From an uncultured Actinomycetota bacterium (lineage in GTDB: Bacteria; Actinomycetota; Actinomycetes; Streptosporangiales; Streptosporangiaceae): 64,000 bases of DNA. Both the position numbers and the translations under genes were made by a program. The DNA lies in NCBI GenBank assembly GCA_963805805.1, contig CAWDVS010000026.1:187333-251332 (forward strand), written 5' to 3'. Position 1 is the first letter of the stretch; every line of letters starts with the position of its first letter. Of the stretch, positions 38,213 to 64,000 are shown piece after piece. The notes below the pieces were generated by a model that was not told the DNA's origin, searched no databases, and saw only the letters and a program-made list of their open reading frames with translations.

Positions 38213-39326
38213 GTGATGGCTGGAATGTCGGCAAGCTGGACGGTGGATGACCTCGGCCCGGCGAAGGTTGTCTTCCTGCGCCTCCCTGCGGGGGTGAACG
38301 CGGTCGTTGTCATCGACAACGTCGCGCTGGGCCCGGCGATTGGCGGCGTGCGGATGAGGCCCGGTGTCACAGCCACCGAGGTAGCACGGCTAGCGCGTGC
38401 CATGACAGTCAAGAACGCTGTGGTGGGGCTGCCGCATGGTGGCGGGAAGTCCGGCATAGCGGCACCGCCGGACTTGGCACCGGCCGATCACGAGCGGGTG
38501 ATCCGTTCTTTTGCCCGGGCGATCGAGCAGCTCACGGATTACATTCCGGGGCCGGACATGGGTACGACAGAGACCTCGATGGCTTACGTGCACGACGAGA
38601 TCTGCCGGGCGGTGGGCCTGCCCAGTGTGCTCGGGGGAATACCGCTGGATGAGCTCGGTGCGACCGGATTCGGCCTGGCGGTATGCGCCGAAGTCTTAGC
38701 CGAAGCCAAGGCGCTTGATCTTGGCGGGGCACGCGTCGTCGTCCAAGGTTTTGGCGCGGTCGGCAGCAACGCCGCGCGCGCAATCGGCGAGCGCGGCGCC
38801 ACCGTGATCGCCGTCTCGGACATCCTAGGTGCCACTTGGAACCCGGACGGGCTCGATATCGCGGCCGTCGCGGCGTACAAGCAGGCCACGGGCTCGGTCA
38901 CCGGATTCGCCGGCGGTACGATCTGTGCCACGAGATGACATCCTCGGCTTCGACTGCGACATCCTCGTTCCCGCCGCGCAGCCCGACGTCGTGACAACGG
39001 ACAATGCCGGCAAGATCAACGCCCGGGTGATCCTTGAAGGAGCCAACATTCCCGTTACCCGCGAGGCCGAGGCCGAACTGGCCGAGCGCGGCGTGCTCTG
39101 CGTCCCTGACGTGGTGGCGAACGCAGGCGGTGTCATCTGTGCAGCGGCCGAGTTCCGCGGGGCCGGCCACATCGAGGCATTCGCTGAAATCGAGGAGAAG
39201 ATCCGTGAAGCAACGAGCGAACTGCTGGACCGCACCGGCCGCGGCTCGCTGACTCCGCGCGCGGCGGCTGAACAGATGGCGGAGGCACGGCTGAGCAGGG
39301 CAGTTGCCCTGCGCCGAAGGTTCTGA
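38213..39326 (+). pseudogene. Glu/Leu/Phe/Val dehydrogenase family protein, frame-disrupted at about 38927
   Basis: It has the GLPHGGGKSGI catalytic-Lys motif and the VVVQGFGAVGSNAA Rossmann motif. The continuation PRDDILGFDCDILVPAA...ILEGANIPVT is in the +1 frame. Confidence 0.8.
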
Positions 39327-39391: not shown

Positions 39392-40072
39392 ATGGCCGAG
39401 CGCCGCCACGCGGAGGGCATGCGTTATACCAAGCGCCGCATGGACTTCCTGCTCAACCGCTGGACCCTCAAGCTGGCCGTGAGCCGTGTGCTCGGCTGGC
39501 CCGACGATGACGCCGTGCTGGCGCGGATAGAAGGACGCACGGCCCGCGACGGCGCACCCGAGCTTTTCGTTGGCGGGCAGCCTGCTGCCCGCGGCATCTC
39601 GCTTACTGACCGGGCAGGCTGCGCTGCCTGCCTGGTTGCGGACGGGCCTGCCGCGATCGGATGCGATCTGGAACTCGTGGAAGCGCGCAGCGACGCGTTC
39701 GTGCATGACTACCTGACGGAGTCCGAGCGCGATCTGGTCGCAGCCGCTGGCCCGGCTCGCGACGTCGCCGCCAACCTCATCTGGTCAGCCAAGGAGAGCG
39801 CGCTGAAAGTGCTCCGCACCGGCCTGCGCCGGGATACCAGGTCGGTCGAGGTGACCGTGGAAGACCTGACGCCACCGGAGCGGGCCTGGTCTCCGCTCCA
39901 GGTCCGTGCCGTCGAGGGCCTCACTTTCGGCGGCTGGTGGCGGCGGAGCGGATCGTTCGTGCTTACCGCATGCGCATCCGGACAACTCCTGCCGCCGGCG
40001 GCGCTGGAGGGAATCTCGCCGCTGGACGAGCTGTCTCCCTCGCATACCTGGCTGCACCGGCCGCTGGCATAG
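39392..40072 (+). CDS. Sfp-type 4'-phosphopantetheinyl transferase (N-terminus probably extends to about 39316 in another frame)
   Basis: It has GCDLELVE (Mg-binding D..E) and WSAKESALK (W/FxxKE(A/S)xxK). The upstream frame encodes VLTSWLARAECKLPGGVGWLTDG, which reads into ERRHAEGMRYTKRRMDFLLNRWTLK. Confidence 0.8.
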   Translation: MAERRHAEGMRYTKRRMDFLLNRWTLKLAVSRVLGWPDDDAVLARIEGRTARDGAPELFVGGQPAARGISLTDRAGCAACLVADGPAAIGCDLELVEARSDAFVHDYLTESERDLVAAAGPARDVAANLIWSAKESALKVLRTGLRRDTRSVEVTVEDLTPPERAWSPLQVRAVEGLTFGGWWRRSGSFVLTACASGQLLPPAALEGISPLDELSPSHTWLHRPLA

Positions 40073-45712: not shown

Positions 45713-45745
45713 GCCGGCTCCCGTAGCCGCGAGTAACTCACGTCA

Positions 45746-46545
45746 GCCCCGCATAGCTGCACGTATCGGGCGCTGGAGCTCGTCCGCAATCGCACCGGGC
45801 AGCGCCATGGAACGGTACCCGTCGATGCGGACGAGCACGTCGCCGGCCGAGTCCACGACGCGGCAGTCGAAACTGCCGTCGCTCACCGGATGAACGAGAG
45901 CGAGCAGGGGCCCGTTGCCACGTGGCTTGTGCAATGTCCGGATCAGGTCGGCATGCCAGGGCAGCGCCAGCCGCCCCGCCTGGCCGATGTCCCACAGACC
46001 GACCGTCTGGAAGCACAGCTCGGCCAGCAGTGGCTCGGTCGTCGTCGGATCTCCCGATGGCAGGTGGTCGGGGGGCAGGTGCTCGGCTAGTCGGCCGACG
46101 ACGTGACCGTTGCAGCGCCACGCCTCGTCGAGCACCTGGTAGGCGGGGCCATGGGGGAACACGCGGTAAATGTCGGCATGGCCGACACGCGCGGCAGTAG
46201 CACTGGTGGGGGAGTCATCAATCTCCGGGCGCAGCGCCTGCGTAGTGAGCCGGACGCTGCCGGTGAAATGCGTTGTCCAGCGCGGTGCCTCGTCCCCCTT
46301 GATCATCCTGCTGCAGAGCCATCGCGCAGTCCGCCACGAGGTCGGAGCCATCCCTGCGGACCACCGCCCGAACCGTCACCGTCCGCGGCTCATCGCGGTA
46401 GAACTTCACTGGCGCCATGAAGTCCATTCGCTCAACGCCCGCCACGTTCAGGTCCGGAGCTGCGAGGCTCGCGACTGCGGCGAAGGCCTCGGCGCCCATG
46501 ACCCCGGGGAGCACCGTGATGGATTCGATCTTGTGATCATGCAGG
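45746..46545 (-). other. PKS domain DH (polyketide-type double hot-dog dehydratase)
   Basis: It has FLHDHKIESITVLPGVMGAEAF (HxxxGxxxxP) and a second motif region LLAELCFQTVGLW. A frame break lies at about 46310-46330. Confidence 0.75.
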
Positions 46546-46564
46546 AACGGCTGTGCTAGCTGGG

Positions 46565-48140
46565 TCCAGTGTCGTCTCGACCGTCAGCCCTGAGTAGACG
46601 CCCATGCAGGTAACGGATCCGGCCATCGGTCTGGCCCCGGTCCTGACGGCGGCGATGTCGAGGCCGCCGGCGGGGTCAAGCTCGCGCAGCATCATGCCGA
46701 GCTCTCCAGCGACGACGACCTCACCGCGGAACGGGCCAGCTGTCAGCTCCCGCCTAATCCAGGCGATTCCTGCCTCGGGAGGCAGCATCTCTATCCCGGC
46801 CATCTCCATGATCTTCGGGATGGATCCGCGCGTGGCCATGCCGAGGCCGGCCCACGCGGTCCAGTCGAGGACGATCCCGCGGGTGCCCGGCCGGGTCCGG
46901 CGGAAGCTCGACGTGATCTTGCACAGCAGATCGTTAGCCGCGCTGTAGTCGGTCTGGCCGGCATTGCCGAACCGGGCTGCCACCGAGCTGAAAGCCACGG
47001 TCGCGCCGATCGGCAGGTCGCCGGCCGCATGCAGGAGGTTGAACCAGCCATCGCTCTTCACATCGAATACGAGGTCATATTCGCGGCGGTCCTTGTCGGC
47101 GATCCCGCGGCTGATCTCGATCCCGGCCGCGTGCAGCAGTACGTCGATGCGCCCGTGCCGTTCGCTGATGTCCGTGACAACCCGTGCGACTGCCTCGGCG
47201 TCGGTCAGGTCTAGTGCGTGGTAATGAGCTTCGCCCCCTGCCGCGCGTACGGCTTGTATCGCGGTGAGCGCGGACTGGAGCCGCTCGTAGCGGGAGAGCT
47301 CACGCTCGACCAGCACGGGCGTTGGCCGTTGTCCGCCTGCCTTGAGCCGCTCGCTGATCGTTGCTTTGAACGCATCCCGGTCGGTTGCGAACTGAACCAG
47401 ATCCACGTCGGCAGGATCAGGCTCAGGACTCAGATCGAGCAGGTGGAAGGTGCCGCCGCTGGCGGCAGCCAGGTCTGCGACGATCGCTGACACGATGCTG
47501 CCGGCCGCCCCGGTGACGACGAACACGCTCTCGCTCCAAGGGTTAGCCCGCCAGCTCCGTCGCCGAACGCGACCTCGCGCAGGCCCACGGTCCAACGGCG
47601 GCCGTCTGCCCGGCCGACCTCTACTGCTCCCGGGTCACGCCGGGTCTCCTCGATGAGCGCGTCAGCGAGCGACGCGGTCTTCCTGCTGACGGGGAAGTCC
47701 ACGGCCTTGACGAGTACTTCAGCCCGCTCACGGTGGTAGGCCTTGGTGAAGCCGGTCACGGCACCGCCGAGAGGTGCAATGGCGCCCGTTTCGTCATAGC
47801 CGTGGTAGCCACCGAGGCGGGTGGCCGAGACCAGGAACGTGCCCCGAGGTCCGAGCTGACCCTCGCGATCCAGGCGCCGCACCACCGAATGCAGGTTCTT
47901 CACCCGGCTGGCCAATGCATCGCGCCAGCCGGCCAGGTCGAGTTCCTCAATGGGCGGCTCGGCATCAAGCGCCGCAAGCCAGTACAGGCCGTGCACAGGA
48001 CCGTCCGCGAGCCACGTCCCCATCCGCGCGTCGATTGCGTCGGCTGCGGATCCGGCTTCCAGGACAAGAGCGGTCACGCCAAGCGCACCAAGGCGCCTGA
48101 CGAGCGCGGCCGCGACGCCACCCTTGTCTGCCATCACGAT
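46565..48140 (-). other. PKS domain KR (structural + catalytic subdomains)
   Basis: It has VIVMADKGGVAAALVRRL (pseudo-Rossmann), VFVVTGAAGSIVSAI (Rossmann), and VAFSSVAARFGNAGQTDYSAAN (catalytic Tyr). Confidence 0.8.
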
Positions 48141-48343
48141 GACGCGTTTGGTGTCGTCCAGGGTCACGCCGGTGAGGGAGCACCACTCGATCGGAGGCCG
48201 CAGCACCGGAATCGGAATCCGGCGCGGCAGCGCTTCGGCTGCGGCGATGTCTCCTGTGAACGCGGGCGTGCTCCGAAACGCCGGCGGTGCCTCCTGGGCC
48301 GTCGGGGAGTTGTGGCCAGCCGGGCCGCTGCGAGCTGTGCCCG

Positions 48344-48585
48344 GTCGCGGGCGAAGCCGATGACGTGGGCGAGGGTGGGGAAGTCGCGCAGCCTGAGGTT
48401 CTCATCGCGCGGGATGCCGAACCGTTCCCGCACGGCCGCGAACACCTCGGCCTGCTTGACGGTGTCGACGCCGAGGTCGGCTTCGAGGTCAAGATCGAGG
48501 TCGAGCAGCTCGGCCGGGTAGCCGGTCATCTCGCTGACGATCTGCACGATCTGACTGGTGACCGCGTCAGCGGCTGGCTCGGCTG
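48344..48585. repeat. ACP-encoding tandem repeat copy A (period 344 bp)
   Basis: By eye it is identical to 48688-48929 except for one mismatch (accgcg versus acggcg). Confidence 0.9.
48350..48571 (-). other. ACP3 (PP-binding) with DT in place of DS
   Basis: The core is identical to ACP2. The Thr codon ACC is at 48461-48463. Confidence 0.8.
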
Positions 48586-48687
48586 GTGCTTGCGCGGCCG
48601 GCTCTGCCGGGACTTCGGCGCGGCGGCCGCCCGGTGCCACCGTCGCGGCATGCTGCGCGGCGGTGGCGGGTTGTGTCACCTGTCCGC

Positions 48688-48929
48688 GTCGCGGGCGAAG
48701 CCGATGACGTGGGCGAGGGTGGGGAAGTCGCGCAGCCTGAGGTTCTCATCGCGCGGGATGCCGAACCGTTCCCGCACGGCCGCGAACACCTCGGCCTGCT
48801 TGACGGTGTCGACGCCGAGGTCGGCTTCGAGGTCAAGATCGAGGTCGAGCAGCTCGGCCGGGTAGCCGGTCATCTCGCTGACGATCTGCACGATCTGACT
48901 GGTGACGGCGTCAGCGGCTGGCTCGGCTG
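48688..48929. repeat. ACP-encoding tandem repeat copy B
   Basis: See copy A. Confidence 0.9.
48694..48915 (-). other. ACP2 (PP-binding) with DT in place of DS
   Basis: The core is identical to ACP3. The Thr codon ACC is at 48805-48807. Confidence 0.8.
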
Positions 48930-49018
48930 CGGCGGCGGCGGCCGGCTCGCCCGGTGTCACCGGTGGCAGGCTGCCCGTGCGCTCCGGAGCCGAGCCGTTC
49001 GGTGCGTCGGTCACCTGC

Positions 49019-49246
49019 CCGCTCACGGACGAAGCCGATGACGTGGGCGAGGGTGGGGAAGTCGCGCAGCCTGAGGTTCTCATCGCGCGGGATGCCGAAC
49101 CGTTCCCGCACGGCCGCGAACACCTCGGCCTGCTTGACGGTATCGACGCCAAGGTCGGCTTCGAGGTCGAGGTCCGGCTCCAGCAGGTCTCGTGAATAAC
49201 CGGTCAGGCCCTCAACGATGTCGAGCACGGTTTGCTCGACCAGGTC
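49019..49246 (-). other. ACP1 (PP-binding) with DT in place of DS
   Basis: The sequence is [45 protein letters not shown]. The Thr codon ACC is at 49139-49141. Confidence 0.8.
49031..49172. repeat. ACP-encoding tandem repeat copy C (partial, few mismatches, then diverges)
   Basis: It shares gaagccgatgacgtgggcgagggtggggaagtcgcgcagcctgaggttctcatcgcgcggg... with copies A and B, at an offset of 334 bp from B. Confidence 0.85.
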
Positions 49247-49633
49247 TGCCGGAGACACTGCGGGCACACTCAGAGCAGGCGCCGGAACTGCTGGCGCCGG
49301 CGGTGCTGCCTGCGCCATGGTCGGCACTGGTTCTGCCGCGGGTGCCCGGCCGTTCGCCACCTGGCCGTTCGCCGCGGCGACAACCGCGACGTCGGTAGCT
49401 GCGGTAGCAGGTGATTGCGCGGCTGCGGGCACTACCGCGGGATCGGCAGGGGCCGCGGGTACCTGGACAGGACCATCATCGGTGACGCGCAGGCGGTGCT
49501 GCACGACCTCAAGCCGAGCATCCGGACGACCACTCACCCGCGCCAGCCACGAGCGCCATGTCACGTCGTCGACCACGCGATAGGCGAAGCCCAGGTCGGT
49601 CGGCGCCTGACGCCGGCCATCGGCTGGCGCGGT

Positions 49634-51140
49634 CCAGCGCAGCAGCATCATCGCTATCTGCGAGCCGAAGCCCGCGGCGAGACGAAGCGCATAGGTGACG
49701 GGATAGGCACCGCCGCGCGACAGGTTCAGCTGGCCCAGCTCAGGATCGATCTCGCGGAAATTTGCGACCGGCGGGACGATGCCGGTTTCAAGGGCCTTGA
49801 CGGCCACGACCTCCTCGATGCCCGCGCCCATAGCGTGACCGGTGAAGCCCTTTGTGTTCGTGATGACGACCGAGTCGGCGGCTGAACCGAAAACCCGCCG
49901 CAATGCGTTGATCTCAGCCGCCGCGCTGCCGCCCCGTGCGGGGGTGTATGTCTCATGAGAGACGAACACCGTCTGGCCCGCGATCGCGAGGCGGTCGATG
50001 CCCCGCCGCTCGGCCTGCCGGATGAGATTCTCCATAACCTGGCCGATGTGCTCGACGTCGAGCCGGGTGCCGTGGAACGCGCTGTTGGCGGCCACCACAG
50101 CGAGCACCTCGCAGATCGGGCGGATGCCGCGCTCCCGTGCCGCCGCCGCGGACTCGACGACCAGCGCTGCGGCACCAGATCCGATAATCATCCCGTGCCG
50201 ACGCCGATCGAATGGCAGCGCCGCGTCCTCCACGACGTCGTCGGTCGCCGCCGCGCCGCTAGCCAGGAAACCCGACCCAGTCCAGGGCAGCAACGCGTCG
50301 GAGGCTGCGCTGTCCGCCGACACGACGATCACCCGGCGGCAGCGGCCAGCGCGGATCCAGTCCTCGGCGACCGATACCGCCACGGCTGTGCTGGCGCAGG
50401 CCGAGTTCACCTGAGTGTTAGGGCCACGAGCGCCGATTAGCTCGGCGAACTGCGAGTGCCCCATCGCCAGCACCCTGAACAGGAAGCGGCGGTCGAATGC
50501 GAACGGATGGGTCTCCAGTTCGTGCCGCAGCCCGGCGATGCGCCGGTCCACCTCGGCGGCCGCTTGGTCCGCCGTGTTCATCCGGGCGCGCACATCCGTG
50601 AGCGTCGCCAGCTCGCGTCCGGCGCGAACGGTCCTCCTGGTAACAGTTGATATCGTGCGCGAACGACTCGTAGCCAGGGAACGCCGAGGCGAAAACCACG
50701 CCCGTGTCGTCTCGCAATTCATCGGGCAGGCCCCAGGGGCCGGGCAGCTGAGTCCCCAGCGTGGTGGTGTGGTAATGCCGGACTAGCGGGATGCCCGCGT
50801 CGCGCAGTGCGTCGATGCCGGCGCCGATCGCGAGCCGGGTGCAGGAATCGAGCGCAGCATCGCGGTCGGGATCGAGGCCGAACTCCTCAACCGCATCGAG
50901 AGGGCCGAAACGGCCCGCCAGCTTGATGACGTCGTCCTCGCCCTTGATCATGTCGAAGACCGGGCCGCCGCGGTCGCTCTTTACCAGCCGGGTGATGTGC
51001 TTGTCGACCATCTCACGGCGTATCTGGCGTGGTATCACATCGATGAACTGCTGGCCGGACAGGATTCGGGCGACGTTCTCATCGTCGAAGACGTGCCCCA
51101 CGCCGGGCAGACCGAGCGCGGCCCCGGTAATGACGACCGG
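49634..51140 (-). other. PKS domain KS2: divergent second thiolase-fold ketosynthase with long N-terminal/helical insertion
   Basis: It starts PVVITGAALGLPG. It has NSACAST (Cys codon at 50396-50398), [12 protein letters not shown] (His) and [13 protein letters not shown] (His). A frame break lies at about 50620-50640. Confidence 0.7.
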
Positions 51141-51494
51141 CTCCACGGGTTCAGACGGGTACCGCGACAATGCAGGTGCCGCGTCCACGGCGGGCAACGG
51201 TCCGTCAGCGTCGGCGAGGATGTGACGGCTCCGCTCGAGCAAGTCCGCCAGCAGGTGGCCGAGTTCGGAATAACGATCAGGAGCCACCACTGCCTCGGCG
51301 GCAGGGGGTGCGGGGAGGTTCGGAACGGCACGGGCCGCCTCCGGCCTGGCGGCAGCGGTCGCGGCTGGTGTCGCACCGGGATAGCCGAAGCCGGCCGCGT
51401 ACAGACCGCAGAGGGCGGCGTTGAACGAAGACAGGTCCCCGTTCTTAGGATGGTTGGTGAACAGGGTGACGACATCGTCGTGCTTTGCGCCGAG

Positions 51495-52391
51495 CACGTC
51501 CTCGGCGAATCCAGCCAGCGCACGCTTCGGGCCGACCTCGACGAACACGCGGGCACCGGCCTCGTAGAGGGTGTTGAGGCCCTTCACGAACTGGACCGGA
51601 GAGGCGACCTGCCGGCCCAGAACGTCGAGCATTCGTCCTTCCGCGTCCGGGCCCTCTGCCAGGTAGAACTCCCCGTCGACGTTGGCCACGATCGGCAGCG
51701 TGGGAGCGTGCAGATGCAGCCGTGCCAGCGTCCGCCGGAGCGGCTCGCTGACCGGTGCCACGATGGATGTGTGGAACGCGTGGCTGACCGGAATGCGCAC
51801 GGCCGTCAGGCCCGCCTCCTGGAACGCCAGCATCGCCCGCTCGACGGCCGCAGTGGCGCCGCCGATGACGGCCTGATGAGTGCTGTTTACGTTAGCGACC
51901 ACCACGTAGCCGTCGACCGAGGCCACGATCCGCTCGATCTCCTCCAGCGGGGCCGTGACGGCAGCCATCGCTCCGCGGTCGGCGATCTCCAGGCTGGCCA
52001 TCTCGCGGCCGCGCGCGCTGACTGCCTCGAGCGCCGCGGCGAAGGACAAGGCGCCTGCTGTCACTAGCGCTCCGTATTCACCGAGGCTGTGACCCATCAC
52101 CATGTCGGGCTCGATGCCATAGGCGCGCATTAGCCGGGTGAGGGCAATGTCGGCGGTCAGCACGGCGGGCTGGGTGATCTCGGTCCGCATCAACTGCTGC
52201 TCGAGCTCCGCGACCGCTGACGGGTCATTGCGGTCTACGAATATGTAGTCGGTGAGCGGCCTGCCGAGCAACGGTGTCATCACGCGGTCGGCCTCGGCGA
52301 ACGTCTGCGCCACAATCGGCTCTCTCGCGCGCAGCTCTTCGAGCATGTTGGCGTACTGCGAGCCCTGGCCCGTATAGAGGAAGGCGACCTT
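51495..52391 (-). other. PKS domain AT (malonyl-type acyltransferase)
   Basis: It has FLYTGQGSQY, GHSLGE (Ser codon at 52086-52088) and VSHAFHT. Confidence 0.85.
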
Positions 52392-52856
52392 GGGCGCAGG
52401 GCCGTGGCCAACGAAGATGCCGCGCGCGCGCAACATCTTCCGCATCGCGGCGGTCCCGCTGGTCAGCGCCTGCACGGCCATCGCCGCTTTGTCCGCGAGC
52501 TCGGCAGCGCCGTCGTAATCGATGGCGGCCCGGACGCTGGCCCCGACCAGGGCCGGATCCGGCGGCTGCGGTGGCGGAGCCTCGCCGAGGGCAGCCCGTC
52601 CACGCACATGTGCTAGTTGCGCGGCCACGTCCGCATACGTTTCACCGCCCACCACGAGGGCGCCACGCAGCGGGGCCTTGACCCCTTCACTCGCCGGCGT
52701 GCCTGCGTCCGCTGCGGCCGGGCCGCCGGAGCCCTCAGTCGAGCCAGGGCGAGGATAGGCGGATGCGAGCACCGGAATCCCGGCGCCAACAGTGGCGTGC
52801 AGGTCAGCGCGTGCTGACATCTGCCGCCCTGTTTCGTCGAGCCGGCCAGGTATGTA

Positions 52857-54245
52857 CTCCTCCAGCACGGCGTGGAAGTTGGTGCCGCCGAAGCCGAACG
52901 CGCTGACACCGCCCCGCCGCACTCCCGATGGCGGCATCCGCCACTCGCGAAGCTCTGTGTTCACCCGGAATGGCGAGGCCGGCCAGTCGACGTTCGGGTT
53001 AGGGTCGCGGAAGTTCAGGCTTGGCGGCAGTACCTTCTCATGTAGCGCCATGGTCATTTTGAACAATCCGGCCGCGCCCGCGGCGCTCTTCAGATGGCCT
53101 ACGTTCGACTTCACCGAGCCGAGCGCGATCGAGCCGGGGACGACGTCGGCCCCGCCGAAGACGGCATTGAGGCTTTCGAGCTCGGAGGCGTCACCGACGC
53201 GAGTTGACGTGCCATGTGCCTCGACTGCGGACGCGGTTGAGGGCTCGACCCCGGCGTTGCGCCAGGCACGCTCGATCGCCAGGCGCTGCCCGGCCGGATT
53301 AGGGGCCGTGATCCCCTTGCCCTTCCCGTCGCTCGATCCCGCGATGCCAAGCAGGACCGCATAGATGCGGTCGCCGTCGCGCTCGGCGTCGGCGAGCCGC
53401 TTCAGGACGAACAGCGCCGCGCCCTCAGCCATCACGAAACCGTCTGCGCCTGCATCGAACGGACGTGTCCCCGTCGCGGAGAGCGCTCCGATCTTGCAGA
53501 ATTTCACGAATGCGGCGACATTCATATTGCGGTCCACACCGCCGGCAATCGCGGCATCGAATTGCCCGTCGACGAGCCCCTCTGCGGCGGCGTTGACGGC
53601 GGCCAGGGCGGAGGCACACGCCGCGTCGGTGGTGAAGCTGGGCCCGTGGAAGTTGAAGAGGTTGGCGATCCGGCCTGCCAGGATGCTCGCCAGCTCGCCC
53701 GGCATCGTGTCCTCGTTGATCTCGGGGAACTGGCTCCCGAACGACCGCGAGGTCTCGGCGGTGATCAGCTCGCGGATGTCGGCGGGCAGCCCTGCGAACG
53801 CTGGTGACCTGGCGAGCTCTCTGGTGAATTCGGGAAGCTGGATGCGGAGGTTGCTCGCGTAATGCTTTTCGCCGCCGATCGCGTTGCCGATCACTACGGC
53901 GACCCGCGCCGGGTCGACCTTCCAGGTCGGCCAGCCCGCGTCCAGGAGTGCCGTGCGGGCCGCCGAGACTGCCCATTTCTGGCTGTCATCCATCTGGTCG
54001 CCGACCTTCGGCGGAATCGGTAGCCGCCAGGCGATCGGATCCCACGGGAATTCGCCGACCCACCCGCCGATGCGCGAGTAGGTCTTGTCGGGTGCCCGCG
54101 GGTCAGGGTCGTAGTACAGATCCGGGTCCCACCGGTCCTTTGGGACATCGGTGATGCTGTAGCGGCCTTCGGTGAGGTTGTGCCAGAACACCTCCGCATT
54201 AGGTGCCTGCGGCATGATGGCCCCCATACCGACGATGGCGACCGG
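52857..54245 (-). other. PKS domain KS1 (PUFA-synthase-type ketosynthase)
   Basis: It has VAIVGMG, DRWDPDLYYDPDPRAPDKTYSRIGGW, TTDAACAS (Cys codon at 53616-53618), EAHGTST and SNVGHLK. Confidence 0.85.
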
Positions 54246-54280
54246 CTGCGGCTGGCGTGGAGCGGGCTTGCTTGCAGAGC

Positions 54281-56002
54281 TCATGACGATCGATTCTGTG
54301 TCGGGGGCGGCGATCTGGGTGGCCCGTAGAGGGCGTCAGCGACGCTGTCCATGTCGGCTAGCAGTCCGGCCTGGGCGGCGCGTATGGCGTCCAGGCGCAG
54401 GCCGGTTTCGAAGCCCGCCGTGTCGGCGCCCTGGCTGGCGCCGATCACCCAGCGCAGCCCTTCATGGGCCACTTTGTATGCGGCATTCCGTGCGAACACC
54501 CGGCTCATTGCCGCGAGGGCAGCCGGGTCGAACCGGTGGTCGGCCTTGGCCGGGAGGGCGCCATCGAGGGCCGAAGCGGCGCGTGCAGCGAAGGTGGCGG
54601 CGCACTCCGCGTGGGCGATCAGCTCACCGAGCCGAAGTAGCACGTGCTGGCTCCGAGTGAGGCGGCCGACGCGGCAGGCTTCGAGCACGCCGGCGAGTGC
54701 CTCGCTGGCCAGTGCCGCCGTTCCGGCGCCAACGTCGGCGCGGCGCGCGTGCAGCGCGCGGAGCTCGGCTGCGATCTCGTTGTAGTAGTGCCCGGCGGAC
54801 TTCAGGTGCTGCTGCCAGCGGTCGCGCGCGATCGTCATCTCCATGATCTCGGATGTGCCTTCATAGATCGTGGTGATGCGGACGTCGCGCTTGATCTTCT
54901 CGACCAGGTAGTCCCGGGTGTATCCGTAACCGCCATGCGCCTGAATGGCCGCGTCCGCGGCCAGGTTGCCTGCCTCGGTCGCAAGGTACTTGGCGATGGC
55001 TCCCTCGGTGTTCAGGGCGCCGTTCTCGCCCTGACCCGCGTCAATCCGCGCGGCCGTGTACTCGATGTAGGAGCGGGCGGCCTCTAGCAGGACAGCATGC
55101 GGGACGATGAGCTTGTGCGTGTAACCCTGCTTCTGTGACAGCGGCGCACCGGCCTGGATGCGCGTAGTCGAATAGGCGATGGCGCGGTCGAGCGCCGACC
55201 AGCCGCCGCCGAGACCGAAGGCCGCGACCGTAAGGCGCGTGAAGCCGAACACCATCTGTGCCTGCACGAGTCCCTGCCCCTCGACCCCGCCGACGAGGTT
55301 CTCCGCAGGCACGAAAGCGCCATCGAGGAACAACGCCGCGGTGTTGGACAGGCGGATGCCGTGCTTGTCCTCGGGCCGGTTCTGGGTGAAGCCATCCGTG
55401 CCGCGCTCGAGAACGAACCATGATGGACCGCCCGGGGCCCTGGCCAGGATGGTGTACATGTCGGCGATGCCGCCGTTGCTGATCCACTGCTTGCGGCCGG
55501 TCAGCCGGTATCCGATGGTCTGCCCGTCTTCGACCACAGGTGTCGCGGTGGTCTTCAGCGCGCCGAGGTCGCTGCCTGCCTCCGGTTCGGTGGCGCCGTA
55601 CGCATAGAGGAGTCCGTGCTTGGCGATATCGGCCAGCCACCTGCTCTTCTGTTCTGGGGTCGCGCCCACGAAAATCGGATCGCTGCCCAGAGACGTGGCA
55701 AACACGCTCGTGGCCAGACCGAGATCAAGGCGAGCCATCTGCTCGCAGATCCGGTAGACATCGACGGTGTCACAGCCCATCCCGCCGTATTCCTCGGGAA
55801 TGAACAGCAGGTGCACGCCGAGCTCATCACTGCACATCGCTCGGACCAAATCTTCCGGGCACGCGTCATCGTGGTCGAGCTCTAACTGGCGCTCCTCCGG
55901 CATCGCTTTGGTCACGAATTCCTTTATCGTGTCCAGCGTCATTTTGAGGGTCTCGGCGTCGATACCAGTATCGGCGCGCTCTGTCACGGCGGGCGTCAGC
56001 AC
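54281..56002 (-). CDS. acyl-CoA dehydrogenase family protein with ~190-aa C-terminal extension
   Basis: It has [23 protein letters not shown] and [10 protein letters not shown] motifs. The GTG start lies 9 nt after GAGGAG. The stop overlaps the PKS ATG (ATGA at 54281-54284). Confidence 0.85.
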
Positions 56003-56711: not shown

Positions 56712-57248
56712 ATGCGCGAGATCACTTACGCGGTACAAGGATTTCTGACAGTCCGCAGGGACTCCTTGCGCGTGCCTGTGAGCGGGTCGCTAGCAGTCCA
56801 GGCTGACCCGGACTCGGGCCTCTTCACGGGCGACCTCGTCCTCGACCAGTCCACGATCAGCCGGATAGTCCTTGGCGCCAGCCTGTACAGCGCTACCGTC
56901 CAGATTGTGCCCGACTCTCCCGTCATCGGCAGAGTCGACCACGAGGGCCAGCTCTTCGCGACAGTCACGGTCGACGCGGTCATAGCTGCTGTCCACGTCG
57001 CCGGGCGGACGTTGCTCGGTGGCGCCTCATGCCGGACCGCCACTCACGCCGTCGTGCCGTTGCGCTCCAAGCCCGGCTTCCACCTGGAGCAGGGCGGCCG
57101 CCTGGCCGGCCGGTACCACCGGCCGCCCTTTACTGGCTGCGGGTGGAGCACTCCGCTTATCAACCTGCTTGTCGCCGGCCCGGGGAACGCCGTTGTCATT
57201 GACCTCGTCCCGGCCGCAGGGTGTCCCGCAACGCCTCAAGCGCAGTGA
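56712..57248 (+). CDS. hypothetical protein (178 aa, no recognised domain)
   Basis: The ATG is preceded by a strong SD (GAGGGAGGAGG). The composition is protein-like and beta-rich. The 3' end overlaps the convergent SDR gene by ~50 nt. Confidence 0.55.
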   Translation: MREITYAVQGFLTVRRDSLRVPVSGSLAVQADPDSGLFTGDLVLDQSTISRIVLGASLYSATVQIVPDSPVIGRVDHEGQLFATVTVDAVIAAVHVAGRTLLGGASCRTATHAVVPLRSKPGFHLEQGGRLAGRYHRPPFTGCGWSTPLINLLVAGPGNAVVIDLVPAAGCPATPQAQ

Positions 57249-58251
57249 AGCGGGGTGCCCAGCCCAGTTCGCGCTTCGCCCGGGTAGTGTCCATGATCGC
57301 CGGATGGCTGGCCGCCTCCACCCACTGCGCGATGGGCGGAAGGAACGGCAGGGCGGCGAACGCCCGGGCCGTGAACTGGGCCGGGCCCACGGGCAGGGGC
57401 AGCGGGAGCATGCCGAGTTCACGGGCGATGTCGGCGGCGGTGACGATCCCGTCGGCGGCGATGTTGTAGGCACCGGGCGGTCCGGCCGCGACGACACACC
57501 GCAGCAGTGCCTGCCCCGTGTCTTCCTCGTGGACCAGCTGCAGCGGCAGCGCCGGCACCAGCACCGGCAGTGGAATCTGGCCAGCCAGCCTGCCCAGACG
57601 GCGGGCCAGCGGAGCCAGCGGCCCGGGCAGCTGGTCCTTCGCGCCCACAGCGTGCGGGCCCACCACGATTGACGGACGCAGCAGGTAAAGGGCTGGTCTG
57701 GGCCCTGACCCAGCAGCGGTCTCGTCCCGCAACAGGGTCTCGAGCTCAGCCTTTTCCTGGGCGTAGAACAGCCGGGCGGCGGGCCGCACCGGCCAGTCTT
57801 CGGTCATGCCCACAGGGTTATCGGGGTGGAAGCCGTAGGCCGCCACTGAGGACGAATAGACAAAACGGCGGGCCCCGGCCGCGGCCGCGGCACGGAATGC
57901 GTTCAGCGTGCCTTCGACGTTGACCGACCGGATCGCCTCACGTGACGCGGCGCCGGTAACCAAGAACGCCAGATGCACCACCACGTCGGCATCGCCGAAC
58001 GCGGCACGCAGGGCGCCGGGGTCGCGGACATCCCCGCGGTGGTACACCATCTTCGTCCAGCCGTATGCGACCGGGTCGAACGGGCGCCGGGCAATGCCCA
58101 CGATTCGCGCCACGCGGTCGTCTGCCTGGAGCAGGGGCATCAAGCCGAAGCCGAACGTACCGGTCGGACCGGTTACCGCGACTGTAAGATCCGTCTCTCT
58201 GGCAGGCACCGAATCGGCTACCTCCCTGGCCCTAGTTGTCTGGCACAGCAT
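57196..58251 (-). CDS. extended SDR, NAD-dependent epimerase/dehydratase / 3beta-HSD-like family
   Basis: It has VAVTGPTGTFG (GxxGxxG) and a YAQEK (YxxxK) catalytic pair. The start is taken at the ATG at 58251. Confidence 0.8.
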   Translation of the reverse strand: MLCQTTRAREVADSVPARETDLTVAVTGPTGTFGFGLMPLLQADDRVARIVGIARRPFDPVAYGWTKMVYHRGDVRDPGALRAAFGDADVVVHLAFLVTGAASREAIRSVNVEGTLNAFRAAAAAGARRFVYSSSVAAYGFHPDNPVGMTEDWPVRPAARLFYAQEKAELETLLRDETAAGSGPRPALYLLRPSIVVGPHAVGAKDQLPGPLAPLARRLGRLAGQIPLPVLVPALPLQLVHEEDTGQALLRCVVAAGPPGAYNIAADGIVTAADIARELGMLPLPLPVGPAQFTARAFAALPFLPPIAQWVEAASHPAIMDTTRAKRELGWAPRFTALEALRDTLRPGRGQ

Positions 58252-58472
58252 GACACCGTGCCCGCCGGTGCTGCAGGGTCGAAGGTCCTGGCAGCTACTA
58301 CCAGGAGCGAAAGCTCCTGCCGCTAACCCGGCGTGAGGGGCCGCCTCCGCCGCGCCGTGTGGAGCGAGGGCGGATGCGCGAGCTGGTACCTGGACGCCGA
58401 TGGCGTAATCGTGCACTATGGCCGGGATTCAGCACGCACTCGGCGCCCGCGCCGCGGCGATTACGTGATCCG

Positions 58473-59363
58473 CTAACGATCCTGGGCGCCCGCCATCAGG
58501 TCCGGGTCATGCGCTTCGCTGTCCGCCCAGACGCGGTCCAGGAACTCGCTGATCTCGGCGGTCAGCCGGGCAGGCCGCAGCCACAGCTCAGCGAACGTGC
58601 GGGTGCGGATCAGCCGGGCGTCAGGAAGCTGCCGCGCCAGGTTTCTCGCATCACTGAATGAGTGGATCAGGTCGATCCCGTGTCCCAGCACCAGCGCCGG
58701 AACGGTGATCGACCGGCGCTGGTCGGTGGTCGGGGCGATGGGACCGAGCAGAACACCGTGCAGCACGGCGGCGATTTCGTCGGGATCCGACCTGGCCGCA
58801 CTGATGAACGAGCCGAACGGGCCGAACGGGGATAGCGGCAGGAGAGAGGCGGCCCGGGATACCACTCGCAGCGGGACACGGGCGTAGTGGACGCCGAGCA
58901 GGAGCGGCAGGAACACGAGCGCTGCCGCGGGGACGGCCCACTCCAGCACCGGCATTTCGAGAATCAGGCCGCGGACCCTCTCGGGTGCCTGCACGGCGGT
59001 TAGCAGGCTCACATTGGTGCCCAGAGAAACACCCCCGAGCACCACCTGATCTACGCCGAGTTCGTCCAGCAGGCACAGCACCTGCCCGGCGTACAGGTCC
59101 ATCCGGTGGGCTCCCGCATGGCGGGGCTTGTCGCTGCGGCCATGGCCCAGCAAGTCGAGCAGCACGACCCGGTTGCCCTGCGCCGCCAGGGTCCTGGCCA
59201 GGCCCCGGCTGAGGTTAGCGTCCAGCAGCAAACCGTGCAGCCACACGATCACCCGGTCGCCCGAGCCGTAGACCTCGTAGCCCAGCTGGTACTGACCGTA
59301 GGACAACGAATGCTTGGCACCCTCGGGAGCTTGTTCTGGATTGTGCTCCTTATCCAAGCTCAT
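58473..59363 (-). CDS. alpha/beta-fold serine hydrolase (possible thioesterase/lipase)
   Basis: It has VWLHGLLLD (oxyanion region), a GVSLG nucleophile elbow and a late HGIDLIH. The remainder of the 753-aa ORF is antisense to the KASIII gene. Confidence 0.8.
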   Translation of the reverse strand: MSLDKEHNPEQAPEGAKHSLSYGQYQLGYEVYGSGDRVIVWLHGLLLDANLSRGLARTLAAQGNRVVLLDLLGHGRSDKPRHAGAHRMDLYAGQVLCLLDELGVDQVVLGGVSLGTNVSLLTAVQAPERVRGLILEMPVLEWAVPAAALVFLPLLLGVHYARVPLRVVSRAASLLPLSPFGPFGSFISAARSDPDEIAAVLHGVLLGPIAPTTDQRRSITVPALVLGHGIDLIHSFSDARNLARQLPDARLIRTRTFAELWLRPARLTAEISEFLDRVWADSEAHDPDLMAGAQDR

Positions 59364-59495
59364 GGCGGTATCGACAGGTCGGATAGCCGTCTGGGAGTGA
59401 CGTTCGCCCCTATCGCCAGGCACCCGGAGCCGGAAAACTCTCATCCCTAACGATAACGCCAAGCGCGCGCCGCGATCGGTGCACGAGGGGGACCA

Positions 59496-60629
59496 ATGGC
59501 CGGAACCCGCGGCACCCAGGCGAGCCATTGGCTGGCGCTCGAGTCGCGCGATTCTGCTGGCATCTGGGGCTGCCGGATCGAGAGCGTCGGCGTCAAACTG
59601 CCCGCAGGGAAGCTGACGACCAAGAATTTGATGAACCAGACCAAGCACCGCACCAAGATCCAGCTCGAGCGGCTGACGGGCATCCATGAGCGTTATGTCG
59701 TAGGGCCGGGCGAGAACTCCTTGACCCTGGCCGCCGGGGCGGCGCGCGACTGCCTGGCTCATTCGCAGCATCAGGCGCCCGACATCGAGATGCTGATCAG
59801 CACCAGCATCACCCGCTCTACGCCCCGGTCCTGGCAATCCTTCGAGCCCCCGCTCAGCCTGCAGGTCAAGCAGGCGATCGGCGCCACGCAGGCCGTGAAC
59901 TTCGATCTGTCCAACGCGTGTGCGGGCATGCTGACCGGGGTGTTCGTCCTTCAGGACCTCATCGCCCGAGGCGAGATCAGCTGCGGCATGGTGGTTTCCG
60001 GCGAGTACATCTCCCACCTGAGCTGGAACGCGGCGAAGCAGATCCGCTCGCTGTTCAGCAAGCAACTGGCATCGCTCACGCTCGGTGACGCGGGTGCCGC
60101 CGTGATCGTGGAACGGGCACCCGTTGGCGGACCGGGCATCGATGTCATCGGCTTCACTACTCTCGCCGAGCACAGCCGCCTGTGCCTCGCATTCCCCAGC
60201 ACCGCGGGGCCGGGCGCCCAGATGTACACCAAGTCCAGGGAACTGCAGAAGGTGGCCATAGAGGACATGGCGCCGCTGGTCGCCGAGGTGATCGGCGAGG
60301 CCGGCATAGCCCTGGATGACATCGACTACCTGATCCCGCATCAGACCTCGGCCAGGGCCATCCGCCAGGGCGCGCAGGAATTCGCCCGGCGCCTCGGGGC
60401 CAAGCCGAAGCACATAGTTGTCAACCTGGAGGAGTACGGCAACACGTCCTCGACAACGTTGTTCGTGGCTCTCCACAAGTACCTCGTGGAGCAGCGAATG
60501 CACAAGGGAGACAAGGTGATGCTGCTGGCACTCGCCTCCGGCATCGAGATCGTCATCGCGGTTTTTACCGTCGAAAGCCAGGTGGACCACTATGGGCGCA
60601 CGGATTGTCGCCGCCAGCGCGCTGACTAG
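59496..60629 (+). CDS. KASIII (FabH-like) condensing enzyme with complete Cys-His-Asn triad
   Basis: It has FDLSNACAG (Cys), YLIPHQTS (His) and EEYGNTSSTT (Asn). The ATG lies 5 nt after GAGGGGGA. Confidence 0.85.
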   Translation: MAGTRGTQASHWLALESRDSAGIWGCRIESVGVKLPAGKLTTKNLMNQTKHRTKIQLERLTGIHERYVVGPGENSLTLAAGAARDCLAHSQHQAPDIEMLISTSITRSTPRSWQSFEPPLSLQVKQAIGATQAVNFDLSNACAGMLTGVFVLQDLIARGEISCGMVVSGEYISHLSWNAAKQIRSLFSKQLASLTLGDAGAAVIVERAPVGGPGIDVIGFTTLAEHSRLCLAFPSTAGPGAQMYTKSRELQKVAIEDMAPLVAEVIGEAGIALDDIDYLIPHQTSARAIRQGAQEFARRLGAKPKHIVVNLEEYGNTSSTTLFVALHKYLVEQRMHKGDKVMLLALASGIEIVIAVFTVESQVDHYGRTDCRRQRAD

Positions 60630-61515
60630 CCGCGGGCTGCGCATGCCAACTGCGCGGCGCCTCGCAGATGCGGCCGCCGTTGCCTGCCTTGCGCATGCGG
60701 GAAAAGACCCCGGAGATGTCGACATGCTGATCAACGCCGGCGTCTACCGGGAAGACAATATGGGCGAGCCCGCGCTCGCTGCCCTCGTGCAGGAGGACAT
60801 CGGGGCCAACCGGGGCCAGCCGCCTGTCAATGGACACGGCACGTTCTCGTTCGACCTCATCAATGGCACCTGCGGCGTGATCAGCGCCATCCAGCTTGAG
60901 GCTGGCTTGCTGCGTTCCGGCGTCATCCAGCTTGGCGCGATCGTGACGAGCGATGTTCATCCGCAGCTGACAGATCCGCGATCTGCTCCCTTCCGGCCGA
61001 CGGGCGGCGCCATGCTCCTCGGCTGGGATGACAGCATCGCCGGCTTCAGCGACTTCTACGCGGAGACGTTTCCCGAGTACCAAGATCTGTTCGCCAGCGG
61101 GCTCGTGTGGCAGGAGCGACGCGGGCTTCGCGTGCCGCTGCGGGCAGGAGGCAAGAGCCACATGGTCATTGACGAGAAACCTGGTTACCATGCCCGCCTG
61201 GCCGATTGCGCTGAGGAGGCAACGCGTCGCTTCCTGCACCGCCTGGGCATGGGCGTGAGCGATATCGACCTGCTAGTCCCGGCCCCTTCCGCCGCAGGAT
61301 TCCTTGACACCTTGATCGCCAGACTCGGTCTTCCGGGCGACCGGGTCGCCTATGTGCCAGAAGACCTTGAGGCTGCCTACACCACCGGGCCCATCGCCGC
61401 CGTGCAGGCGGCCATCAGGTCTGGCCGGCTCGATGAGGCCCGGACCACTCTTGTGCTCGCAGCCGGGGCAGGCATCACTGTGGCCCTCGCCCTGTATCGC
61501 CAGACACCGTCCTGA
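60592..61515 (+). CDS. KASIII-like partner protein retaining Cys but lacking the His/Asn positions
   Basis: It has FDLINGTCGV (Cys kept). LLVPAPSAAG replaces PHQ(A/T)N, and EAAYTTGP replaces GNTS. It overlaps the upstream KASIII gene by 38 nt. Confidence 0.75.
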   Translation: MGARIVAASALTSRGLRMPTARRLADAAAVACLAHAGKDPGDVDMLINAGVYREDNMGEPALAALVQEDIGANRGQPPVNGHGTFSFDLINGTCGVISAIQLEAGLLRSGVIQLGAIVTSDVHPQLTDPRSAPFRPTGGAMLLGWDDSIAGFSDFYAETFPEYQDLFASGLVWQERRGLRVPLRAGGKSHMVIDEKPGYHARLADCAEEATRRFLHRLGMGVSDIDLLVPAPSAAGFLDTLIARLGLPGDRVAYVPEDLEAAYTTGPIAAVQAAIRSGRLDEARTTLVLAAGAGITVALALYRQTPS

Positions 61516-62091: not shown

Positions 62092-62880
62092 GTGTGCACG
62101 GACACCGACCCGCGCCCGGCGGCTACCCGCGGCCCGCGTCGTCCGCGTGCGGCCGTCCTCGCGGTCACGGTTGTCCTGGTCGCGGTGCTCGCCATCCTCA
62201 CGGTGCTCGCGACCCGCCGCGGCGCGGCCAGTGCCGCCAGTCCCGCCGCAACGCCGAAACCCACGTCGACCGCGAGCCCGTCGGTGTCGGCCATCTATCA
62301 GCGAGTCAGGCCGTCGGTGGTCGTCGTCCGTACCAACGACGCGCTCGGCTCCGGTGTGATCGTCGCCGATGACGGCACGATCGTCACCGCGAACCACGTC
62401 ATCGCCGGCGCCACCAAGATCACGGTCACCTTCTACGACGGCACCACGACGTCGGCGGCCGTCGTCTCGGCCAATCCCAAGGTGGACGTCGCGGTGCTCA
62501 GCCCGGCGGCGCTGCCGCAGGTCATCGTGCCGGCGGCCCTCGGCGGTGGTGCCAGCGTCGGGGCGCCGGTAGTCGCGGTCGGCAACCCGCTCGGCCTCGC
62601 CGACAGCGTGTCCGCCGGCGTGGTCTCCGGCCTCGACCGGACCGCGCAGACTGCCGAGGGCACCTACTCCGGGCTCATCCAGTTCGATGCGTCGGTCAAC
62701 CCCGGAAGCTCCGGCGGCCCGCTGCTCGACGCGCGAGGCCTGGTCATCGGCATCGTCGTCTCGATCGCCAACCCGGCCCACGAGGACGCCTTCGCCGGTA
62801 TCGGGTTCGCGGTGCCCATCGGCTCCGCGCTCGGCGGCAAGGACCGCAAGGGCGGCACGGGACCCGGACCTCAGCTATGA
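62092..62880 (+). CDS. trypsin-like serine protease, S1C (HtrA-like) without PDZ domain
   Basis: It has an N-terminal TM segment. The catalytic triad sits in TANHVI (His), DVAVL (Asp) and NPGSSGGPL (Ser). Confidence 0.8.
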   Translation: MCTDTDPRPAATRGPRRPRAAVLAVTVVLVAVLAILTVLATRRGAASAASPAATPKPTSTASPSVSAIYQRVRPSVVVVRTNDALGSGVIVADDGTIVTANHVIAGATKITVTFYDGTTTSAAVVSANPKVDVAVLSPAALPQVIVPAALGGGASVGAPVVAVGNPLGLADSVSAGVVSGLDRTAQTAEGTYSGLIQFDASVNPGSSGGPLLDARGLVIGIVVSIANPAHEDAFAGIGFAVPIGSALGGKDRKGGTGPGPQL

Positions 62881-62905
62881 CCGCCGAACCACCCGGAGGG
62901 GACAG

Positions 62906-63882
62906 ATGAGTACGGCCAGTTCTGCGAACCCGCTCGAGAGCGTGCTGTTCGAGGTCAAGCGCACCATCGTCGGCCAGGACGTGCTGCTGGAACGGATGGC
63001 GGTCGCGCTGCTGTCCGGCGGGCATCTGCTCGTGGAGGGAGTGCCGGGCCTGGCCAAGACGCTCGCGGTGAAGTCACTGGCCGCAGCGGTCGGCGGGCAG
63101 TTCCAGCGCATCCAGTTCACCCCGGATCTGATGCCCGCCGACCTGACCGGGACGCGCGTCTACCACCAGCACAACGGTGAGTTCGAGACCCAGCTCGGCC
63201 CGGTCTTCGCGAATCTGCTGCTGGCCGACGAGATCAACCGCGCTCCGGCCAAGGTACAGAGCGCGCTGCTCGAGGTCATGCAGGAGCACCAGGTCACGAT
63301 CGGCCGCGAGACCTTCCGGGTGCCCGAGCCGTTCCTGGTCATGGCGACGCAGAACCCGATCGAGTCGGAGGGCACCTACCCGCTGCCGGAGGCGCAGGTC
63401 GACCGCTTCATGATGAAGGTCCTCGTGAGCTACCCCAGCTCGCCCGAGGAGCACGCGATTGTCGACCGCGCGCTGCGCCCGGCTGAGCCGATCCGGTCGA
63501 TGCTGACACCCGAGGACCTGATCAAGATGCAGGAGCGCGTGCAGCAGCTCTACGTCGACCCCGCCATCACCGACTACGCCGTCCGGCTGGTGACCGCGAC
63601 CCGCCGGCCCTGGCCGGGCTGGACGAGATGAAGCGCTACCTGACCTACGGCGTCAGCCCGCGCGCCTCCATCGCGCTGGTCGTCGGCGGGCGGGCGCTCG
63701 CGTTCCTGCGCGGCCGCGACTACGTGCTGCCGTACGACGTCAGCGATCTGGCCGCGGACGTGCTGCGGCACCGCGTCGTGTTGTCGTACGAGGCGCTTGC
63801 TGACGACATCAGCGCCGACGACATCATCAGCCGGGTGCTGGATGCCGTGCCCGAACCCGAGGTCGTCCTGCAGAGCCGGTGA
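62906..63882 (+). pseudogene. MoxR family AAA+ ATPase, frame-disrupted near 63608
   Basis: It has Walker A LVEGVPGLAKT, Walker B LLADEINRA, and VMATQNPIESEGTYPLPEAQVDRF. The C-terminus (LAGLDEMKRYLTYGVSPRASIAL...) is in the -1 frame and looks like a 1-nt deletion. Confidence 0.8.
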
Positions 63883-63886
63883 TCCC

Positions 63887-64000
63887 ATGCGCAGCGTGCC
63901 CGAACGTCTCCTGCTCCGCCTGGAATGGCGGGTTGTCCGCCGCCTGGAGGGACGGGTGCAGGGCGGCTTCCGGACCGCGCACCGCGGGCCCGGAATCGAC
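63887..64000 (+). CDS. DUF58 domain protein (5' part only, runs off window)
   Basis: The sequence is MRSVPERLLLRLEWRVVRRLEGRVQGGFRTAHRGPGID. It sits in the canonical position after moxR. Confidence 0.7.
   Translation, partial: MRSVPERLLLRLEWRVVRRLEGRVQGGFRTAHRGPGID

Follow-up and report, generated by a model that had tools for sequence, protein, structure and literature searches.

The KAS1-KAS2 gene pair

The DNA examined here, referred to as the window, is a 64-kb stretch (64,000 nucleotides; ~68% G+C across its length) of contig CAWDVS010000026.1 (GenBank assembly GCA_963805805.1, positions 187,333 to 251,332), from an uncultured member of the Streptosporangiaceae (Actinomycetota). Open reading frames (ORFs) define five full-length, intact genes between 56.7 and 61.5 kb, unlike the frameshifted genes elsewhere in the window. 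They encode a conserved hypothetical protein, an extended short-chain dehydrogenase/reductase (SDR), a Ser alpha/beta-hydrolase and two KASIII-type proteins, here called KAS1 and KAS2. The sequences of KAS1 and KAS2 place them in the LstAB/NltAB-type family of head-to-head condensing thiolases, and it is this pair, its genomic partners and its probable product that we address below.

KAS1 (377 aa; 59496-60629, + strand) matches Pfam ACP_syn_III and ACP_syn_III_C, and KAS2 (307 aa; 60592-61515, + strand) matches ACP_syn_III_C only. An earlier reading of this DNA made from the letters alone (the sequence-only reading) had described two overlapping, co-directional KASIII genes, and this is what we found: both lie on the + strand and share 38 nt, with the stop codon of KAS1 at 60627-60629. 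The ATG of KAS2 at 60592 is preceded by AGGTGGA, a Shine-Dalgarno-like sequence.

For comparison with characterised systems, NltA, NltB, NltC and NltD were rebuilt from the codon-optimised DNA in the supplement of bioRxiv 10.1101/856955 and stitched by frame. KAS1 shares 38% identity with NltA (209 bits) and KAS2 shares 32% with NltB (82 bits), both figures being approximate for Nlt sequences derived by optical character recognition (OCR). The corresponding values for KAS1 are 26% (87 bits) against OleA and 25% (80 bits) against FabH, while KAS2 gives no more than 30 bits with either. Among solved structures, the best matches of KAS1 are FabH enzymes (89 bits); it nevertheless falls under the cutoff of every curated NCBIfam FabH model (128.9 vs 292.1 bits for TIGR00747, and 147 vs 249 for PRK09352).

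A neighbour-joining tree (303 columns, 100 bootstraps) groups KAS1-type proteins with NltA (95% bootstrap) and KAS2-type proteins with NltB (98%), leaving OleA and FabH outside. Neither protein thus clusters with FabH or with PqsBC-type enzymes; PqsC and PqsD match KAS1 at 39-45 bits, and PqsB is absent from the matches. KAS1 and KAS2 split off as a clade of their own (99% bootstrap), sharing only 32-38% identity with NltA/B, and the KAS1 and KAS2 subtrees are congruent. The kinship with LstA/LstB and NltA/NltB that the sequence-only reading had proposed is therefore upheld by the phylogeny, and also by the invariant Glu, the truncated triad-less partner, the adjacency of the two genes and the fusions described below.

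The organisation of the pair is shared with both of these systems. NltA/NltB (nocardiolactone, Nocardia brasiliensis) and LstA/LstB (lipstatin, Streptomyces toxytricini) are likewise the products of two adjacent KASIII genes with the catalytic triad in the first, and NltB and LstB resemble KAS2 in being ~300 aa long and triad-less, with a Glu at position ~57-60. The triad of LstA is C128/H271/N305 and E60 of LstB is essential; LstA and LstB are each insoluble alone, and wherever an LstB counterpart occurs it is co-clustered with LstA (PMC12141560). NltB is truncated and has no triad, and NltAB is active only on co-expression (bioRxiv 10.1101/856955); its E57A and E57Q variants are inactive (bioRxiv 10.1101/856955, Fig. 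S5).

Catalytic residues of KAS1 and KAS2

The reference sequences of OleA (X. campestris) and FabH (E. coli), checked against PDB entries 3ROW and 1HN9, were aligned jointly with the pair. KAS1 residues E117, C142, H282 and N316 occupy the columns of OleA E117, C143, H285 and N315, in agreement with the full Cys/His/Asn triad attributed to the first KASIII when only the sequence had been read. FabH of E. coli has no Glu at the OleA-E117 column, whereas KAS1 has E117.

KAS2 has Glu59 in the Glu column, and Thr93, Ala and Ala in the Cys, His and Asn columns, where NltB has Ala, Ser and Asp. The sequence-only reading was thus right that the second protein has lost the His and Asn, but not that it keeps the Cys: the nucleophile column holds Thr93, and Cys94 of the KAS2 NGTCG motif sits one residue beyond it. 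Cys94 is frequent rather than conserved: other members of the family have Arg, Ala, Ser, Ile or Val at this position, and NltB reads Ala-Thr there.

Across 42 KAS2 homologues (29-71% identity), the only invariant residues are M1, E59, P60, F87 and G294. Glu59 aligns with NltB E57, LstB E60 and OleA E117; the rebuilt NltB gives NAGVFRDSNTVEPAVSALIQK, and its E57 is aligned with NAGVYREDNMGEPALAALVQE of KAS2. An OleA-type trans-acting Glu, for which the sequence-only reading had suggested a check, is accordingly found in the invariant E59-P60 of KAS2, aligned with NltB E57 and the OleA Glu. Homology gives good support to Glu59 as the putative base for a non-decarboxylative Claisen condensation. 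The AlphaFold2 model of KAS2 (pLDDT 88, pTM 0.89) superposes on FabH with TM-scores of 0.77-0.80, and with 0.75-0.80 over FabH and OleA together. Since this model is confident and superposes on both enzymes, KAS2 is a folded, though triad-less, KASIII.

The distribution of these residues sets the pair apart from two other relatives. OleA of Xanthomonas campestris has the same Glu/Cys/His/Asn constellation, and the non-decarboxylative head-to-head Claisen reaction would be common to both systems. OleA, however, is a homodimer in which each subunit gives the Glu and holds the triad, whereas KAS1 and KAS2, at 26% identity to OleA for KAS1, would split these roles. PqsB/PqsC of the Pseudomonas quinolone signal pathway likewise pairs a catalytic FabH-like subunit with a degenerate one in a heterodimer. 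Unlike PqsC (39-43 bits against KAS1), KAS1 retains the Asn and also carries a Glu of the OleA type, and the genomic context differs.

Conservation and distribution of the pair

Homologue searches returned 861 matches for KAS2 and 2910 for KAS1, which are abundant in soil metagenomes and in metagenome-assembled genomes (MAGs) of Streptosporangiaceae. The clade contains hundreds of protein clusters at 90% identity and is widespread in soil metagenomes; LstAB-like cassettes had already been recognised as widely distributed (PMC12141560). We retrieved 86 loci, found from a set of closer homologues and not from the diverse 42-sequence alignment. They come from Streptosporangiaceae and 'Microflora Danica' MAGs, the cultured Trebonia kvetii, Solirubrobacterales, Acidimicrobiales, Myxococcota and Proteobacteria. 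In every one of the 86, the KAS2 gene directly follows that of KAS1, usually with an overlap (median ~31 nt), and homologues that are 66-98% identical match the proteins of the window in length. The unvarying lengths and the presence of the pair in 86/86 loci argue that the gene pair is not a chance arrangement.

Single-chain KAS1::KAS2 fusions also occur (P0378 and P0390, representatives at 50% clustering). Together with the congruent subtrees, these natural fusions suggest, indirectly, that KAS1 and KAS2 may form a heterodimer.

A further metagenomic protein (P0357, 1790 aa) joins a nonribosomal peptide synthetase C-A-T module to KAS1-like and KAS2-like halves. It recalls lipstatin-type amino-acid decoration, here joined directly to a head-to-head thiolase.

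Search for a beta-lactone synthetase

The sequence-only reading had reported that no OleC/NltC gene of the ANL family is present, and our wider search agrees. No ANL gene was found in the 64-kb window with the OCR-derived NltC fragments and a FadD11-like query, and the other large ORFs located between 1 and 30 kb, scanned with Pfam, gave only central-metabolism and transport genes (PFOR, PGI, G6PD, P450, MFS and similar families), with no ANL match. Nor was an OleC/NltC-like gene found within 10 kb of the pair in any of the 86 loci, which span several phyla. In the relatives, NltC fragments gave only weak, generic ANL matches (27-38% identity). Two types of ANL gene do lie near the pair, and one example of each was scanned: a FadD11-like protein (locus L006) and an acyl-CoA ligase of the PRK06187 type (locus L068), the latter scoring 494 bits, above the model cutoff.

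The locus therefore departs from nlt and lst in lacking both a beta-lactone synthetase (NltC/LstC) and an orthologue of NltD/LstD, and from OleABCD in having no OleB, OleC or OleD. Across the clade, the pair is accompanied instead by a wax ester synthase/diacylglycerol acyltransferase (WS/DGAT), an extended SDR of another kind, the Ser hydrolase, a hypothetical beta-rich protein and acyl-CoA ligases. A literature search, conducted largely outside subscription journals, found no link between LstAB/NltAB and wax ester synthases (WS/DGAT).

Genes accompanying the pair

Neighbours were counted on non-redundant loci, comprising 47 of the Streptosporangiales/Trebonia type, 15 from Solirubrobacterales and 19 more distant ones (Myxococcota, Proteobacteria and others). 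WS/DGAT genes occur near the pair in 32/47, 9/15 and 1/19 of these groups, respectively. The extended SDR is present in 31/47 of the first group and in 5/15 Solirubrobacterales loci (64-67% identical), and was not found in the distant loci. Three genes were seen near the pair in the Streptosporangiales/Trebonia-type group and not found in the other two: the Ser hydrolase (38/47), a cholesterol-oxidase-like GMC oxidoreductase (16/47) and the FadD11-like acyl-CoA ligase (15/47). An acyl-CoA dehydrogenase (ACAD) is near the pair in 3/47 and 3/15 loci of the first two groups and a PfaA-like polyketide synthase (PKS) in 2/47 and 4/15, neither being found in the distant loci. The most consistent partners include two that the sequence-only reading had missed, namely WS/DGAT and the hypothetical protein.

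The SDR (351 aa; 57196-58251, - strand) is an NAD(P)-dependent oxidoreductase that matches Pfam Epimerase (71 bits) and 3Beta_HSD (57.5 bits) and carries the TGxxGxxG and YxxxK motifs. It had been described as OleD/LstD/NltD-like, a likeness that holds at the level of the extended-SDR superfamily only. Orthology to OleD/NltD was rejected: the OleD NCBIfam models give 40-42 bits against a cutoff of 580, the BLASTP match to the OCR-derived NltD is 28.5 bits and restricted to the Rossmann region, and the best PDB relatives are generic epimerases. We regard the SDR as a candidate ketoreductase.

The hydrolase (58473-59363, - strand) is transcribed divergently from KAS1, with its start at the ATG at 59363 or an alternative GTG at 59423. 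It matches Pfam Abhydrolase_1 (75.7 bits) and Hydrolase_4, and its GVSLG elbow confirms the earlier remark that the nucleophile is a Ser and not the Asp of OleB. Its best PDB relatives are generic esterases (at most 46 bits), and haloalkane-dehalogenase models match its N-terminal region only (at most 46 bits against cutoffs of 241-466).

The conserved hypothetical protein (178 aa; 56712-57248, + strand) is convergent with the SDR and has no Pfam or NCBIfam match. It has an invariant GCGW motif and 611 homologues, all of them annotated as hypothetical, and it stands beside the SDR, the hydrolase or KAS1 in 37/86 loci (before redundancy filtering). It is predicted to be all-beta, with a beta-rich AlphaFold2 model (pLDDT 84); the closest structural match, DynF from an enediyne pathway, is weak (E 0.03, TM-score 0.44). 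The protein is lineage-specific.

Within the window itself, a WS/DGAT acyltransferase is encoded at 31927-33806 (- strand), where Pfam WS_DGAT_cat and WS_DGAT_C match two adjacent ORFs of a frameshifted gene. It is 64-65% identical, over three frame-shifted high-scoring segment pairs, to the WS/DGAT adjacent to the pair in L006. Next to it lies the cholesterol-oxidase-like GMC oxidoreductase (33757-35532, + strand; one frameshift), which is 81-83% identical to the GMC protein of L006 and scores 567 bits with NCBIfam CholsOxChoxAB, under the cutoff of 850. Both genes are orthologous to those that accompany the pair in relatives.

The ACAD (54281-56002, - strand; Pfam) and the PfaA-like type I PKS (45743-54284, - strand) precede the five-gene segment. 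Pfam matches in the PKS cover KS-AT, KS-like/CLF-like plus ACP, KR and PS-DH regions, and its best NCBIfam match is the PfaA subfamily (586 bits). A link between pfa products and head-to-head condensation had been raised in the sequence-only reading. It is weakened by the PKS being near the pair in so few close relatives (2/47), but keeps some ground in Solirubrobacterales, where the PKS can share an operon with the pair. ACAD and PKS genes are co-directional with KAS1-KAS2-WS/DGAT in L033, L068, L071 and L073, and L068 (Solirubrobacterales) forms a tight operon in the order acyl-CoA ligase-KAS1-KAS2-WS/DGAT-ACAD-PKS.

In a Myxococcales MAG (L060, 11365-13959), the pair adjoins an FMO/BVMO-like flavin monooxygenase and an adh_short SDR and not a WS/DGAT. 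These neighbours suggest that the product there has a different, ketone-processing fate.

Proposed pathway and alternatives

We consider it probable that KAS1 and KAS2 act as an LstAB/NltAB-type heterodimer whose head-to-head condensation feeds the synthesis of an ester-linked neutral lipid with an alpha-branched, mycolic-acid-like chain. In such a pathway, Cys142 of KAS1 would be acylated by one long-chain acyl-CoA, and the Glu59 loop of KAS2 would enter the KAS1 active site and deprotonate the C-alpha of a second acyl thioester. Attack of the resulting carbanion on the acyl group already bound, a head-to-head Claisen reaction without decarboxylation, would give a 2-alkyl-3-keto acyl compound. 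The SDR would then reduce the 3-keto group to a 3-hydroxy group, and WS/DGAT, an acyl-CoA-dependent O-acyltransferase, would form the ester. The hydrolase and the beta-rich protein may be accessory, possibly serving in release or editing and in lipid binding, respectively. Acyl-CoA ligases would supply the substrates, possibly joined in some lineages, that of this window among them, by the PfaA-like PKS. We infer the substrates, the product and the roles of the SDR, WS/DGAT and hydrolase from gene neighbourhoods: an ester-linked neutral lipid seems the most likely end product because the pair is tied to an SDR, a WS/DGAT and a hydrolase and has no beta-lactone synthetase beside it. The coupling to the acyltransferase may be closer still, as one protein (P0300) is a KAS2::WS/DGAT fusion with the C-terminus of KAS1 just upstream.

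Several observations weigh against this proposal. The WS/DGAT gene of the window is ~24 kb from the KAS pair and reads as frameshifted, with GH65, truncated GDH, ACC, PKS and ACAD genes lying between the WS/DGAT-GMC genes and the pair. Only one contig, 2.4 kb long, carries the P0300 fusion, and misassembly may account for it. The SDR has no more than a generic relationship to OleD/NltD, and the identities to the Nlt proteins are approximate, since the rebuilt text is OCR-derived and contains frameshifts. Finally, the 19 distant loci have the pair almost without WS/DGAT or SDR, which implies that the downstream chemistry is lineage-specific.

The proposed logic would be analogous to that of the Pks13/CmrA mycolic-acid condensation in Mycobacteriales, in which two long acyl chains are joined by a Claisen reaction, the 3-keto group is reduced and an ester transfer follows. 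Pks13 is a type I PKS that needs one carboxylated substrate; the KAS pair is unrelated to it, and carboxylation would not be expected. The best match to the Pks13 NCBIfam model in the window is the neighbouring PKS and not the KAS pair. A more specific version of the proposal, which we put forward tentatively, is that the locus provides a Pks13-independent route to mycolic-acid-like lipids, in which very-long-chain acyl groups with an alpha-alkyl branch and a beta-hydroxyl would be built into neutral or envelope lipids by a dedicated WS/DGAT, with a PfaA-like PKS feeding the route in some lineages. If so, this would be a new lipid class and a potential biomarker. Its carriers would be soil Actinobacteria that are abundant but have seldom been cultured (Streptosporangiaceae/Trebonia and Solirubrobacterales).

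A serious, though less probable, alternative retains the same pair and gives its product another fate. The 2-alkyl-3-keto acid would lose its carboxyl group, either spontaneously or with the aid of the hydrolase, leaving a long-chain ketone with the carbonyl in mid-chain; the SDR, or the GMC oxidoreductase in reverse, would interconvert ketone and secondary alcohol, and WS/DGAT would make secondary-alcohol wax esters. The products of OleA and NltAB readily decarboxylate to ketones in vitro (bioRxiv 10.1101/856955), and NocG-type head-to-head products have been proposed to do so spontaneously (PMC9486936). The 3beta-HSD-type SDR and the nearby cholesterol-oxidase-like GMC oxidoreductase both belong to classes that act on secondary alcohols or ketones, and the Baeyer-Villiger-type FMO and SDR that adjoin the pair in Myxococcales point in the same direction. 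On the other hand, the hydrolase has no decarboxylase signature and resembles a generic Ser esterase. WS/DGAT enzymes classically take primary alcohols or diacylglycerol, which also counts against a ketone-derived wax ester.

It is unlikely that the locus belongs to an ordinary ole/nlt pathway to beta-lactones or olefins with its OleC/NltC gene at another site in the genome. Such a pathway would fit the NltAB-like condensing pair and the adjacent extended SDR, and the stretch examined amounts to 64 kb of the genome; yet no OleC-like gene occurs within 10 kb of the pair in 86 loci, and the ANL genes scanned match acyl-CoA ligase models. Moreover, the SDR is no orthologue of OleD/NltD, a Ser takes the place of the OleB Asp in the hydrolase, and in the nlt clusters described so far NltC is flanked by NltABD (bioRxiv 10.1101/856955).

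That KAS1 and KAS2 serve as a starter-unit KASIII which primes the adjacent PfaA-like PKS, or represent a spare FabH with a decaying duplicate, is highly improbable: the PKS-ACAD-ACC cluster does lie immediately upstream and the best solved-structure matches of KAS1 are FabH enzymes, but a priming role is rejected on synteny (the PKS being near the pair in only 2/47 close relatives) and on phylogeny (KAS1 grouping with NltA, scoring under the FabH cutoffs and having the OleA-type Glu), while KAS2, with its conserved length, invariant Glu-Pro, confident fold and subtree congruent with that of KAS1, does not look like a decaying copy.

So far, thiolases of the LstAB/NltAB type have been known only from the start of the routes to nocardiolactone and to beta-lactone drugs (the orlistat precursor). 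What is new here is a clade that is widespread in soil, has no lactone synthetase and is genetically tied to acyltransferases of the wax-ester/triacylglycerol type. Should the alpha-branched ester lipid proposed above be its product, these bacteria would contain an undescribed family of such lipids, with relevance to the biology of cell envelopes and storage lipids, to lipid biomarkers in soil and to the biocatalytic production of branched long-chain esters. A cultured bacterium, Trebonia kvetii 15TR583 (locus L040), carries the pair, which makes the idea directly testable.

Remainder of the window and flanking genes

The region at 39785-56002 (- strand) forms a lipid/polyketide cluster made up of the ACAD, the PfaA-like PKS and an acetyl-CoA carboxylase (ACC). 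The ACC is a single chain of 1975 aa with the eukaryote-style order BC-BCCP-central-CT. Between this cluster and the GMC oxidoreductase are a GH65 gene in two pieces (35594-38160) and a truncated Glu/Leu dehydrogenase (GDH; 38171-38938). The closest relative, from ENA long-read soil assemblies, is 98% identical, and the PKS, which is in at least four pieces in the window, is one 2958-aa gene in this relative. The splitting of the WS/DGAT, GMC, GH65 and PKS genes, along with the truncated GDH, suggests long-read assembly indels rather than real pseudogenes.

In three Streptosporangiales-type MAG contigs (L001-L003), the module is flanked by universal stress, Rv1733c-like, CBS/BON and acetyltransferase-CoA-ligase fusion genes. 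These flanks resemble the mycobacterial dormancy (DosR) regulon, which also has a WS/DGAT (tgs1).

Downstream of KAS2, a trypsin-like serine protease gene and then a MoxR AAA+ ATPase gene (62092-64000, + strand) are apparently unrelated to the pair and mark the downstream boundary of the module. In a close relative, the MoxR run extends to DUF58 and three VWA/BatA genes, resembling a Bat-like operon.

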